NCBI GenBank assembly: GCA_964365855.1
Contig: CAYIRC010000003.1
Span: 2,629-50,090 of the forward strand
Reading direction: 5' to 3'
Length of the DNA: 47,462 bases
Source of the DNA: Candidatus Woesearchaeota archaeon
GTDB taxonomy: Archaea; Nanobdellota; Nanobdellia; Pacearchaeales; GW2011-AR1
The notes under the pieces were generated by a model that ran no database searches, was not told the DNA's origin, and saw only the letters and a list, made by a program, of their open reading frames with translations. Each line of letters starts with the position of its first letter. The first letter of the stretch is position 1. A program made the position numbers and the translations under genes. This document shows, in pieces, positions 27,862 to 29,247 of the stretch.

Positions 27862-29247
27862 TCATTCTGTTTCATTCAGCATCCTCCTGATTTCATCAAT
27901 CCTCTTTTTCTTTTCATAAATTTCAGAAGGCACTTCTGTGCCATTTATAATTACAGAGCTGTTTTCAGCCCTCTTTGCAAACAAAGTATAATCTAAACCA
28001 AAAGGTTTAAATACACATAACCCACTTGTATTATGTGGGTTACAACTAAACTTATCAGAGAATAAAATGGCAAACATGACTTTATCAATACCAGACAAAT
28101 TCAAGCAGAAAATGGATAAATTTACTTGGCTTAACTGGAGTGAATTAGCGCGGGAAGCATTTGCAAAAAGAATGAAACAGCTTGAATTGCTTGAAAAGCT
28201 AGATAAAGATTTTGAAAAATCCGAGCTGACAGATGAAGATTGCATAGAGCTTGGAAGAAAATTAAGAGAGGACATCTGGAAGAAGTATAAATAATTTAAA
28301 ATGAAATTAGTTGTTGATACAAGCATAGTATTTTCTTTATTTAAGTCTGATTCATTAACTAACAAATTATTAAAAAAGTATAAACTCGAATTATTTGCAC
28401 CTAAAGAATTAACACTTGAATTAGGCAAGTATTGTGATTTAATCTGCTCCAAGTCTAAAATATCTAAAGAAAAGTTTTTCTCAGATATTAAATCTCTTTC
28501 TAATTTAATAGAGTTTAAAACATCTTCGCAATTTTTATTGTGTAAAGCAGAAAAATTAATCTCGCATAAAACTGATTCTCCATTCATCGCATTAGCGTTG
28601 GAATTGGATATTCCAATCTGGTCAAATGATTTGCATTTCAAAGAACAATGTGAAATCAAAGTATTCACAACAGAAGAGCTTTCAAAGTTCTTAGATGCAG
28701 AATAAACTTTATGTTCAGGGCTTACTAATAACCCGCCCCCATCTTCCAAAACAATATTATACATTTCTCCATTATGCCCATAAGATTGTTTAGCAGTTGG
28801 CTTCTGCCACTCCAAATTTCCAGTTATATTATTAAGAGTGGCAACTTTCTCATTTTCTAGTTCATTAAAATATTTCCATCCATTTTCAGTCAAAATCTCT
28901 GTCTCATTGTCATAACATTCTTCAGTCAAGTTCGTCAAATATATTTTATAATACGCCCCGCCACTAGAAAAGTCCAAAATGCCTGTAAACTCTGCAATCT
29001 TTATAGTTCCATTCACCTCATAAACCCCAATCCTCCCGCTATTCAAAACCTCATCAGAAGAATAATTCGCCAGCCAAGAATACCCTGAATTTACCAAATC
29101 ATCTGACAAAGAGTTAAGCTCATTCTGAAGAGGCGCTTGCTCTTCAGAAGTTAAAGCGCCAGCTAAAAAAATAAGCCCTATAATTAAAATTAAAATTATG
29201 CCTATTAATGTTAACATGCTTCCTATTTTTTTATTATTGAATTTCAT
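27862..29247 (-). CDS. Chimeric ORF: surface-protein head + intein/Hint N-terminal half + antisense TA passenger + surface-protein tail
   Basis: aa 31-108 match the giant protein's N-terminus; CYDNETEILTENGW..VSPEHKVY are intein blocks A and B; last 39 aa match the end of the 897-aa ORF. Confidence 0.75.
   Translation of the reverse strand: MKFNNKKIGSMLTLIGIILILIIGLIFLAGALTSEEQAPLQNELNSLSDDLVNSGYSWLANYSSDEVLNSGRIGVYEVNGTIKIAEFTGILDFSSGGAYYKIYLTNLTEECYDNETEILTENGWKYFNELENEKVATLNNITGNLEWQKPTAKQSYGHNGEMYNIVLEDGGGLLVSPEHKVYSASKNFESSSVVNTLISHCSLKCKSFDQIGISNSNANAMNGESVLCEINFSALHNKNCEDVLNSIKLERDLISEKNFSLDILDLEQIKSQYLPNSSVNSLGANNSSLYFFNNLLVNESDLNKENTMLVSTTNFILNYLYFFQMSSLNFLPSSMQSSSVSSDFSKSLSSFSSNSSCFILFANASRANSLQLSQVNLSIFCLNLSGIDKVMFAILFSDKFSCNPHNTSGLCVFKPFGLDYTLFAKRAENSSVIINGTEVPSEIYEKKKRIDEIRRMLNETE
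28018..28043. promoter_or_regulatory. Palindromic operator upstream of the antitoxin
   Basis: TAACCCAC-N9-GTGGGTTA just after TTTAAATA. Confidence 0.6.
28067..28294 (+). CDS. RHH/CopG-type antitoxin (VapB-like)
   Basis: MANMTLSIPD..K.KM.....NWSELAREA; directly upstream of the PIN gene. Confidence 0.85.
   Translation: MANMTLSIPDKFKQKMDKFTWLNWSELAREAFAKRMKQLELLEKLDKDFEKSELTDEDCIELGRKLREDIWKKYK
28301..28705 (+). CDS. PIN-domain toxin (VapC-like)
   Basis: LVVDTSIVFS, E, D.PFIALAL, IWSND.HF. Confidence 0.92.
   Translation: MKLVVDTSIVFSLFKSDSLTNKLLKKYKLELFAPKELTLELGKYCDLICSKSKISKEKFFSDIKSLSNLIEFKTSSQFLLCKAEKLISHKTDSPFIALALELDIPIWSNDLHFKEQCEIKVFTTEELSKFLDAE

Follow-up and report, generated by a model that had tools for sequence, protein, structure and literature searches.

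Canonical inteins carry a LAGLIDADG or HNH homing endonuclease domain, as in PI-PfuI and PI-SceI, and inteins are thought to persist by means of this homing endonuclease or else to decay to mini-inteins. The Didymium rDNA group I intron has its homing endonuclease gene on the antisense strand. Type II toxin-antitoxin (TA) addiction modules occur on plasmids, integron cassettes and genomic islands. Dassa et al. (2009) reportedly described split inteins, or 'fractured genes', whose two halves flank a free-standing endonuclease gene. Among the titles and abstract openings returned by full-text literature searches, none described an intein with a TA operon in its interior or on its antisense strand, and as far as these searches reach, the antisense embedding of TA genes in a coding frame, with recoding, has not been reported before. 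Here we analysed a 47,462-nt stretch of DNA (the window) from a Candidatus Woesearchaeota archaeon. It probably contains a decayed copy of a cargo-carrying intein, belonging to a class whose intact members keep antisense TA operons in the endonuclease slot, where they may act in addiction.

The locus is a chimeric open reading frame (ORF) of 461 codons on the minus strand (27862..29247), which consists of an N-extein, an intein N-half, a part antisense to a TA operon and its putative promoter, and a borrowed tail. The frame runs from end to end without a stop and joins the tail in frame, and a Pfam scan of the entire 461-aa ORF gave no match at E<=1. The N-extein (aa 1-110; 28918..29247, minus strand) has an N-terminal hydrophobic segment followed by an N-domain with the end ...YYKIYLTNLTEE. 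It is 59% identical over 91 aa (tblastn) to the N-terminus of a paralogous 5,625-aa ORF, and DNA positions 28923-29076 are 81.8% identical to 26281-26434. This paralogue, a surface-protein gene (9719..26596, minus strand), is an intein-free allele of the insertion site, reading …YYKIYLTNLTG PVG SNNTNYSQSTFDL… without interruption. The N-side junction of the window copy matches the site ...YK[IV]YLTNLTG that is also occupied in three related inteins (L024, L025 and L058); in L024 and L025 the exteins read …YKVYLTNLTG before the intein and SNSYDTFDLKV… after it. The C-side extein is absent from the window ORF, with an unrelated tail in its place. The locus was compared with DNA contigs of a single study. 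A 1,225-nt contig from run X2 spans 27914-29138 with 0 differences; X2 is a possible source sample and not independent support.

The tail (27844..27988, minus strand) is copied from the end of an 897-aa-type gene and takes in its final 41-43 codons, the stop codon and 18 nt of flank on the 3' side; DNA 27844-27988 and the 3' end of the 897-aa gene (32009-32154) share 87.7% identity over 146 nt. That the minus frame rejoins a conserved tail in frame, as the original prediction had it, was confirmed with this copy as the tail. In a contig of run X1, the sequence from 27988 onward continues as 897-like gene body and not as cargo. A second form at 27988 co-occurs, and the window junction is not the sole form in the population.

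The intein part starts at Cys111 (codon 28917-28915), which was predicted to open block A, and the N-terminal splicing region with blocks A and B extends to Tyr182 (28702..28917, minus strand), block B ending at SPEH…VY as proposed. NCBIfam TIGR01445 matched the isolated 85-aa piece above its cutoff over model positions 1-82 of 83 (27.8 bits, cutoff 24.5; E 3.9e-6) and the complete 461-aa ORF slightly below it (23.5 bits); Pfam Intein_splicing gave only E 0.036 on the N-half, under threshold. Cys1 and the block B His (...SPEH...) are intact, and complete cargo-bearing inteins have N-halves that share 58-71% identity with this one.

No block F had been visible in the earlier reading, which suspected loss of the C-half by recombination with the tail, and both points held. 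A C-half HMM made from 26 relatives gave 0 matches at E<=10 in the ORF or in the six-frame-translated 792-kb assembly, which is 85% complete. The last trace of the C-half region (…G-L-D-Y…; 27989..27996, minus strand) directly precedes the break: VFKPFGLDYTL in the window is 8/11 identical (BLASTP) to VFKLYGLDYSL in L024, and the likeness, which reaches the start of the L024 C-half region, stops right after GLDY[T]L. In the AF2 model of window aa 111-461, only the first ~70 residues were confident, confidence fell to 60-70 in the second part of the N-half, and no C-terminal strands packed on it. The sequence '...CNPHNTSG...', with the only His-Asn-Thr within the 461-aa ORF, was rejected as block G: the operator palindrome described below encodes it, no block F precedes it and the HMM gave no match. 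A split-intein partner elsewhere in the genome was rejected as well, the C-half HMM having no match in the 85% complete assembly. Because the C-terminal splicing half is absent, the window copy should be unable to splice, and splicing by it is not expected.

On the plus strand of the same region lies a TA operon that looks intact and whose genes have the layout of a type II VapBC-like pair, a predicted PIN toxin with a small antitoxin directly upstream on the same strand. The toxin gene (28301..28705, plus strand, 134 aa) matches PIN_2 (PF10130; E 2.9e-18; 66.8 bits, cutoff 22.4) over model positions 1-129 of 133 and is 58% identical to PIN_2 genes in complete inteins. The VapB-like antitoxin gene (28067..28294, plus strand, 75 aa) matches NF050799 below the cutoff of 60 (24.3 bits; E 3.4e-5), a weak family assignment, and is a member, with 68% identity, of a 50-member cluster of cargo antitoxins. 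Both genes are in one plus frame with a 6-bp spacer (28295-28300) between them, and the TAA of the toxin (28703-28705) takes in the last base of the Val181 codon together with bases 1 and 2 of the Tyr182 codon. A putative archaeal BRE/TATA element, CCAAAAGGTTTAAATAC (27998..28014, plus strand; V-F-K-P-F-G on the host strand), probably acts as the promoter of the operon. The same 16-17-mer was found again upstream of cargo operons at many loci, and TTTA[AT]A is present within 75 nt upstream in 33/42 cargo operons. Between this element and the start codon, a perfect 8-nt inverted repeat, TAACCCAC / GTGGGTTA, 9 nt apart (28018..28042, plus strand), looks like an operator; on the host strand it reads as a chance 'NPHNT'. 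The complete antitoxin-PIN operon, its 6-bp spacer and the TAA within the Val-Tyr codons were all found where they had been predicted, and every coordinate of the locus that we checked was correct. Most likely, the 461-aa ORF is what remains of a gene, with the TA operon as probably the sole part that still works.

The N-half alignment was scanned against one genome per species, which yielded 79 loci with a related intein N-half, and at 61 of these a C-half was present in the same open frame. The results showed antisense TA operons in the intein interior at 42/61 loci, among them the same-site inteins L024, L025 and L058, with open host frames. At 15/61 loci the same slot held a sense-strand interior of ordinary composition, as in canonical endonuclease-bearing inteins, and 4/61 were mini-inteins or other forms. 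The 42 cargo loci have host-frame interiors rich in S/N/L/F (0.38-0.54) and 2-5 antisense ORFs each, with cargo of the types VapB-PIN_2, VapB-YafQ/RelE-like and DUF433-DUF5615. Pfam recognised the antisense ORFs as PIN_2 in 25/25 cases including the window, DUF433 in 8/8, DUF5615 in 8/9 and ParE/YafQ in 6-7/11, and the 50-member VapB-like cluster mentioned above comes in addition. Within the DNA retrieved, the median length of the host open frames is 1,790 aa. The intein hosts, mostly in DPANN-type archaea, are genes for giant surface proteins, in which at least six insertion sites are used, and the taxonomic labels of some host contigs may reflect binning errors.

Three members of the clade are free of cargo (P0011, L023 and L037), P0011 being at the insertion site of the window copy, and broken remnants like the window copy were seen at six loci (L075, L077, L089, L093, L096 and L098) and in protein P0003. 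For proteins P0002-P0044, the cargo was assigned from host-frame similarity only. The idea that further Hint matches in the 61 relatives might hold antisense genes too was dropped: L013-L017 have sense-strand interiors, as ordinary inteins do. From our reading of the sequences, we take their hosts to be NrdD, MCM, a PHP-like gene and an ATP-grasp-like gene. The proposal of an intein as vehicle for TA cargo by dual-strand coding is thereby upheld for the class, the 'vehicle' in the window itself being defunct.

At 25 loci a single frame leads from Cys1 to ...WSGN and the +1 Ser without a stop. C1, G13, W14 and N396 are invariant in the complete relatives, and H68 is nearly so. The penultimate residue of inteins is usually His; in the complete relatives it is Gly. 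In the AF2 model of the L024 intein, residues 1-76 and 327-396 reach pLDDT >90, and the interior between them, at ~30-40, is unstructured. Its two halves superpose on 6zgq_B with Z 20.6 and rmsd 1.7 A over 139 residues, and reach Z 17-19 with many other solved inteins. Complete relatives such as L024 have Cys1, block B His, terminal Asn and +1 Ser, with a full predicted HINT fold, all in frame in a host protein.

The host ribosome must cross the antisense TA sequence without meeting a stop, which would explain a recoding of the cargo, and such recoding was seen in the codon usage. In cargo genes of the codon-on-codon frame, TTA/CTA made up 0/135 Leu codons and TCA 0/73 Ser codons, compared with 611/1,128 (54%) and 283/781, respectively, in the other-frame genes of the same operons. 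In the wobble-sharing frame, codons ending in T before Tyr/His/Gln numbered 0/382 versus 28% elsewhere, while Lys (27% vs 12%) and Glu (18% vs 12%) were enriched at these sites. By synonymous resampling, 0.55-3.9 host-frame stops were expected per gene and 102/102 genes had none, a zero that is partly by construction, as the 42 loci were in part picked by having the C-half in the same open frame. The median probability of an open frame per locus was 0.006, for loci that are related and not independent events, and chance openness in the codon-on-codon frame was ~0.01 per gene.

Stop depletion was tested against free-standing PIN_2 genes, as the original prediction had suggested, and it is real. 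Among the 38 PIN_2 matches that were examined from the order, 19 are free-standing and more distant (18 unique, one place counted twice), and these have 1-7 stops each in the host-equivalent frame, compared with 0 in the cargo; the 6/6 matches located within giant open frames are free of stops. Across 401 genomes sampled from the phylum, the interior was found in stop-free frames of 898-6,639 aa in 7 genomes, and free-standing homologues with 1-7 stops in 13 genomes. Stop-free antisense frames also occur in eight TA cassettes outside recognisable inteins (L002, L100-L102, L104, L106, L121 and L122), so that openness can persist without current selection. The argument for recoding rests on the improbability of the frames together with the same-operon codon control and the free-standing controls. 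All these results indicate that the class is under dual-strand constraint, with TA frames that match curated families and avoidance of the codons that would create host stops.

For the window copy itself, the minus host frame shares third codon positions with the TA genes, and in this arrangement no host stop can arise except at NNY-Tyr or NNT-His/Gln, sites that number 0 in the antitoxin and 3 in the PIN gene (S-Q, S-H and L-H). Both Ser codons among them are TCG (28526-28528 and 28562-28564), and the caveat that shared wobble makes this antisense frame intrinsically poor in stops was borne out on the window genes. Within the window, the PIN antisense frame would be open with a probability of 0.23 (synonymous resampling) and the promoter part with 0.12 (shuffling), giving chance openness of ~0.03 with the frame of the tail left out of account. 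The openness of the window by itself is unusual, not decisive; it is taken as more than chance because of the comparative data from related inteins. In the window copy alone, host-frame constraint is not separable from inheritance.

The cargo differs between loci even at one insertion site, and four pairs of sister inteins (L030/L040, L035/L039, L049/L038 and L054/L048) carry differing cargo. On the splicing-domain tree, which is poorly resolved (strong support for only 2 branches, from 148 columns), cargo type changes 11 times versus a shuffled mean of 10.4, which indicates no clustering. A single origin per cargo type was rejected on this weakly resolved tree. TA cassettes are probably exchanged between inteins.

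In the intact form, which many related genomes contain, an intein lies in frame within a giant surface-protein gene, and the loop that otherwise houses a homing endonuclease holds 1-2 type II TA operons, which are encoded on the opposite strand and each preceded by a putative archaeal promoter. A ribosome translating the host gene would read across 200-500 codons of antisense TA sequence, and the resulting low-complexity interior peptide would presumably be thrown out with the intein by protein splicing. In the window copy, the remainder of the C-half and the entire C-extein are missing, and what survives is joined in frame to a copied 897-aa-type 3' end. The TA pair might serve as an addiction module guarding the endonuclease-less intein and the surrounding gene from deletion, and the intein might in turn give the TA cassette a place within a coding region where its insertion does no harm. 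We tentatively extend this to a class of 'addictive inteins' of DPANN-type archaea, in which interchangeable antisense TA cassettes have perhaps replaced the endonuclease and persistence would come from post-segregational killing instead of homing. The cassettes might pass from one intein to another by recombining through conserved flanks, which are the block B Val-Tyr codons, where the toxin stop lies, and the V-F-K-P-F-G promoter, and might escape as free-standing TA pairs with stop-free antisense frames.

Other explanations were weighed against these data. The cargo might serve the host, either by convergent transcription that regulates the surface protein or by a TA pair that protects a giant repetitive gene from deletion. 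A conserved promoter element opposing host-gene transcription, and the fact that every host is a giant surface-protein gene, with insertions at six sites or more, would suit such a role, but the free swaps of cargo between sister inteins fit interchangeable selfish cassettes better than a tuned regulator, and we regard host service as unlikely. It is very unlikely that the window ORF is still working, its N-half pairing with a separate C-half or cleaving itself, so that the 461-aa protein is made and processed. The frame is open throughout with the tail in frame, Cys1 and the block B His are intact, and a partner could sit in the missing part of the 85% complete assembly; against this, the C-half HMM has no match at E<=10 across the assembly, the AF2 model has no C-terminal strands on an N-half whose second part is at 60-70, the only His-Asn-Thr comes from the operator palindrome, and the tail is copied from another gene.

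Pure coincidence, with a TA cassette in a dead gene, a stop-poor frame open by chance and no selected class, would draw on a probability of ~0.23 x 0.12 for the window, which is not negligible across many scanned windows, on an antitoxin without any stop-capable site and on non-intein cassettes that can be stop-free. It is nevertheless highly improbable in view of 42 related inteins with long open host frames and three unrelated TA families, a chance openness of ~0.01 per gene in the codon-on-codon frame, the stops in distant free-standing PIN_2 genes, and a Lys/Glu enrichment before Tyr/His/Gln that the choice of loci does not produce. The idea that the interior is a real sense-strand intein domain and the antisense ORFs are its shadows comes close to being untenable: gene callers do predict many such host-frame proteins, but the antisense ORFs match curated families with E down to 2e-25, and the host-frame interior is low-complexity, without a family match and at pLDDT ~30-40.

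If the decayed-intein reading with its cargo-carrying class is correct, an entire intein clade would bear other selfish cargo, nested antisense, in genes unlike the conserved enzymes that inteins usually occupy. Codon usage in dozens of naturally occurring overlaps, each 200-500 codons long, would directly show the constraint to stay open, and the disputed field of long antisense overlapping genes would gain a clean test system. The reading also suggests a new persistence strategy for inteins and an origin for some chromosomal TA cassettes. For annotation, many Ser/Asn/Leu-rich 'hypothetical proteins' in these genomes would be shadows of TA cassettes, and inteins that proved able to splice around a large unstructured insert would also be useful to protein engineers.

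Compared with canonical endonuclease inteins, cargo inteins share the HINT fold, the sequence clade (N-halves 32-54% identical) and the extra material in the block B-F loop. They differ in that the loop has free-standing TA-family genes, which lie on the opposite strand behind a promoter of their own, instead of a sense-strand endonuclease, and in that the hosts are giant surface proteins instead of replication and repair enzymes. Like mini-inteins, they have only a splicing domain of ~140 residues as functional protein part; unlike them, the loop adds 200-500 codons that would have to be translated without holding protein-level information for the intein. Split inteins and 'fractured genes' likewise lodge an independent gene between intein halves; there, however, the host is physically split and the insert is an endonuclease, whereas cargo inteins have a continuous host frame with genes on the opposite strand. 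The cargo pairs resemble the usual type II TA modules in family, in having the antitoxin first, in the short spacer or overlap and in a palindrome near the promoter, and are distinguished by lying antisense inside a protein-coding frame and being recoded to keep it open. Group I introns with an antisense gene are similar as self-splicing elements, but such an intron leaves as RNA and has no frame to keep open, whereas an intein must keep its frame open.

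The minus-strand host frame is stop-free from 29247 to 27862, forming an open reading frame (ORF) of 461 codons with five parts. The N-extein (codons 1-110) has a hydrophobic N-terminus and a domain ending in ...YYKIYLTNLTEE, and is paralogous to the N-terminus of the 5,625-aa ORF next to it (9719-26596, minus strand), with 59% identity over 91 aa by tblastn and 81.8% identity over 154 nt at the DNA level. The intein N-terminal splicing region (codons 111-182) begins with Cys and matched an NCBIfam model over its full length, scoring 27.8 bits (cutoff 24.5) when this piece was scanned alone; Pfam intein models stayed below threshold on the ORF and the N-half. 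From codon 183 the frame passes antisense through two plus-strand genes, a PIN_2 toxin (28301-28705; Pfam, E 2.9e-18) and, 6 bp upstream of it, a 75-aa VapB-like antitoxin (28067-28294; NCBIfam match below cutoff), and crosses the upstream region of this toxin-antitoxin (TA) operon, which holds a perfect 8-nt inverted repeat (28018-28042) and a TATA-like element (27998-28014). The tail, comprising the last 43 codons and 18 nt past the stop, is copied from the 3' end of an 897-aa gene (32028-34721, minus strand), with 87.7% identity at the DNA level. As the original prediction stated, the toxin TAA lies within the Val-Tyr codons closing block B, and the two TA genes lie in one frame, whose third codon positions the host frame shares.

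The ORF was used as query against 61 related genomes. One of them (G030) showed an N-half 65% identical to that of the window inside a 608-aa open frame, an interior that runs antisense through another TA pair (DUF433, E 1e-22, and DUF5615, E 5.8e-12) and then a recognisable C-half ending in ...VWSGN/S; the remaining Hint matches were ordinary inteins with sense-strand interiors. A protein collection search returned 44 proteins, many matching the antisense-of-TA part at 37-61% identity and several combining LamG-type exteins, N-half, similar interior and C-half. Protein P0011 carries a window-type N-extein with a mini-intein free of cargo, and the C-extein of P0013 (SNNYSQDTFDL...) is the sequence after ...LTNLTG in the window's intein-free giant protein.

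With an alignment of six N-halves as query, one genome per species was scanned, giving 79 loci, and 61 of these had a C-half downstream in the same stop-free frame. Antisense genes, anticipated in homologous inteins, were found in 42 of these 61, whose interiors showed a host-frame Ser+Asn+Leu+Phe fraction of 0.38-0.54, Lys+Glu of at most 0.13 and 2-5 antisense ORFs; another 15 had ordinary composition and a sense-strand interior, and four were mini-inteins or other. Within the fetched DNA the median host frame length was 1,790 aa, and 25 inteins were continuous from Cys1 to ...WSGN/S. In locus L024 the 396-aa intein interrupts a host ORF exceeding 1,300 aa between ...YKVYLTNLTG and SNSYDTFDLKV..., and the strand opposite the intein encodes a 144-aa PIN_2 protein and an 82-aa antitoxin. 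By record titles the taxa were mostly Nanoarchaeota, Woese-, Pace- and Aenigmarchaeota and Altiarchaeota, and a few contigs were filed, by labels as deposited, in methanogen, halophile or bacterial bins.

The 116 antisense ORFs clustered into VapB-like (50), PIN_2 (24), YafQ/RelE-like (11), DUF5615 (9) and DUF433 (8) families, with a clan AA aspartic protease and a PF01850 PIN among the singletons. Pfam recognised 25/25 PIN_2 (window counted), 8/8 DUF433, 8/9 DUF5615 and 6-7/11 ParE/YafQ genes. Per locus, the cargo was VapB-PIN_2 in 22, VapB-YafQ-like in 11, DUF433-DUF5615 in six, two operons in two and an antitoxin alone in one. Other antisense cargo lay at L071 4228-4596, L020 1486-1872 and L082 1609-2061 (all minus strand), comprising a PF13650 aspartic protease (clan AA, E 3e-11), two small hydrophobic ORFs and the PF01850 PIN, the last in codon-on-codon phase. 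Public gene calls also included Ser/Asn/Leu-rich 'proteins' of 235-350 aa (P0002, P0004-P0006, L002 1372-2079, minus strand); these are no more than the stop-free antisense of a free-standing TA cassette and likely spurious annotations.

Variants of the arrangement were also seen. Some N-halves (L105, L057, L061, L068, P0011, P0016) had an extra insertion of 60-100 residues inside block A (...EILT to ...GWKxF), and L105 held two cargo units with repeated block B fragments in a single open frame. A second, unrelated-looking Hint type had the same VapB-PIN_2-like interior (L103, with PIN gene 833-1231 and host frame open 3-1706; P0025; P0039); its N-half begins CVAE... and the P0025 C-half contains ...EGTHNFIAN.... 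Thus the cargo may not be confined to one intein clade. Among the 18 loci without a C-half, six were broken remnants (partial N-halves plus TA cassettes) and one ran off its contig. L093, L096 and L098 (Aenigmarchaeota records) and L089 were arrays of VapB/PIN_2 and YafQ-like cassettes, each with a short block B-end remnant (query residues 43-72) and no host frame, and look like stranded cargo retaining an intein scar.

Codon usage bears on how the host frame stays open, and two antisense phases occur. In codon-on-codon phase, that of the YafQ-like and DUF433 genes, cargo TTA/CTA (Leu) or TCA (Ser) reads as a host stop; these codons were used in 0/135 Leu and 0/73 Ser codons, compared with 611/1,128 (54%) and 283/781 (36%) in other-phase genes of the same operons, and 39.5% and 22% in host exteins. 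In the wobble-sharing phase of the window, a host stop needs NNY before Tyr or NNT before His/Gln; T-ending codons before Tyr/His/Gln numbered 0/382 versus 28% elsewhere, and Lys and Glu, whose codons all end in purines, were far commoner there than average. Synonymous resampling gave an expectation of 3.3-3.9 stops per gene codon-on-codon and 0.55-2.1 wobble-sharing. Since the loci were chosen partly for an open frame, zero host-frame stops in 102 of 102 cargo genes is expected by construction; loci this numerous at such low probabilities of openness (median per-locus P(open) 0.006) are not expected. In the window PIN gene the Ser codons at both stop-prone sites (28526-28528, 28562-28564) are TCG, which makes up 4.7% of Ser codons genome-wide and 2/16 in this gene; at such sites in other cargo genes TCA was the usual Ser choice (16/26).

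The proposed comparison with free-standing PIN_2 genes came out in favour of stop depletion. At order level, 38 PIN_2 matches from 33 loci included 19 more distant free-standing ones (18 unique, one place being counted twice) with 1-7 stops, and six inside giant open frames with zero stops. In an even phylum sample of 401 genomes, the interior was stop-free in frames of 898-6,639 aa in seven genomes and had 1-7 stops in short frames in 13. Both controls agree with a host frame that selection would keep open. Eight cassettes with no recognisable intein (L002, L100-L102, L104, L106, L121, L122) also had stop-free antisense frames, ending just outside the cassette, so openness alone is no proof of current selection; in our reading these cassettes are cargo recently escaped or stranded.

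In the AF2 model of L024's intein, residues 1-76 and 327-396 had pLDDT above 90, and the stretch separating them about 30-40. Foldseek top matches were all HINT-fold proteins, and VIA-align, with the low-confidence stretch trimmed, gave Z 20.6 (rmsd 1.7 A, 139 residues) against a solved split intein and Z 17-19 against many inteins, BIL and hedgehog domains. These alignments cover both halves, which places the cargo in the loop occupied by the endonuclease in PI-PfuI-type inteins.

At many loci the toxin ORF reaches 3 nt into the N-half, for PIN_2 and DUF5615 toxins alike, which puts its stop in the block B Val-Tyr codons. A 16-17-nt element, CCAAAAG[GA]TTTA[AT]ATAC, recurred upstream of the first cargo gene, with TTTA[AT]A within 75 nt in 33/42 operons; read on the host strand it gives V-[FY]-K-[PS]-F-G, the one motif that the interior conserves in the host frame. 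The inteins occupy at least six insertion sites, and one site can hold different cargo. On a short, weakly resolved tree of splicing domains only, cargo type changed 11 times versus 10.4 when shuffled, i.e. no extra clustering, and several supported sister pairs differed in cargo, among them a pair that shares both genome bin and insertion site. Cassette exchange between inteins is therefore well indicated.

As for the window copy, an HMM from 26 relatives' C-halves found no match (E<=10), either in the ORF or when the 792-kb assembly was translated in all six frames. Similarity to the complete L024 intein reaches VFKPFGLDYTL (8/11 identical), a stretch that in L024 comprises the peptide read from the putative promoter and the opening residues of the C-half region, and there the window departs into the borrowed tail, bearing out the suspicion that the C-half was lost as the tail joined. 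Modelling codons 111-461 with AF2 on an alignment of relatives gave pLDDT 82-91 for the first ~40 residues alone, weaker values up to residue 70 and below 50 beyond. The sole His-Asn-Thr in the ORF was rejected as a splicing motif, being encoded by the putative operator palindrome, the inverted repeat at 28018-28042. From these results we conclude that the window copy, which has lost its C-half and the body of the host gene, is a remnant incapable of splicing; the TA operon in it appears intact, the long ORF being a by-product. The junctions are not an artefact of the window assembly alone, since a 1,225-nt contig of run X2 spans 27914-29138 with zero differences, and a second form of the locus is present in the population, as a contig of run X1 departs at 27988 and continues like an 897-type gene body; both runs come from a single study and are possibly the source samples of the assembly. 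X2 contigs also leave the window sequence at 28061 and 28092.

Around this remnant, two HEPN-nucleotidyltransferase gene pairs (26593-27789 and 29244-30330; Pfam HEPN, NTP_transf_2/Polbeta) each lie directly upstream of the 5' end of a giant-protein family member, so the unit of nucleotidyltransferase, HEPN and surface protein 5' end looks tandemly duplicated. A 79-aa ORF (30341-30580, minus strand) is a third, shorter N-terminal fragment of this family (44% identical to the N-extein over 61 aa), which adds to the evidence that gene fragments gather in the region. The L024 host protein unites an 897-aa-type part (...DITIYTRANESS...) with the giant-protein N-domain (...YKVYLTNLTG...), so the 897-aa and 5,625-aa genes of the window look like pieces of a gene that is single elsewhere. 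By eye, the 5,625-aa ORF shows long repeats internally and, at its C-terminus, a P-loop motif.

With the recurrent architecture, intact TA families, open host frames, codon avoidance and HINT fold of the halves established, a working can be proposed. Ribosomes would read the host gene through the cargo, and the junk peptide would be removed with the intein, while the TA operon's own promoter would drive transcription against that of the host gene. The intein would offer a cost-free insertion site inside a coding region, and the TA pair might penalise loss of intein or gene, taking over from homing as the way to persist. In the literature reached by full-text search, we found no description of TA genes inside or antisense to inteins; the components are known, and the composite and its recoding are, to our knowledge, undescribed.
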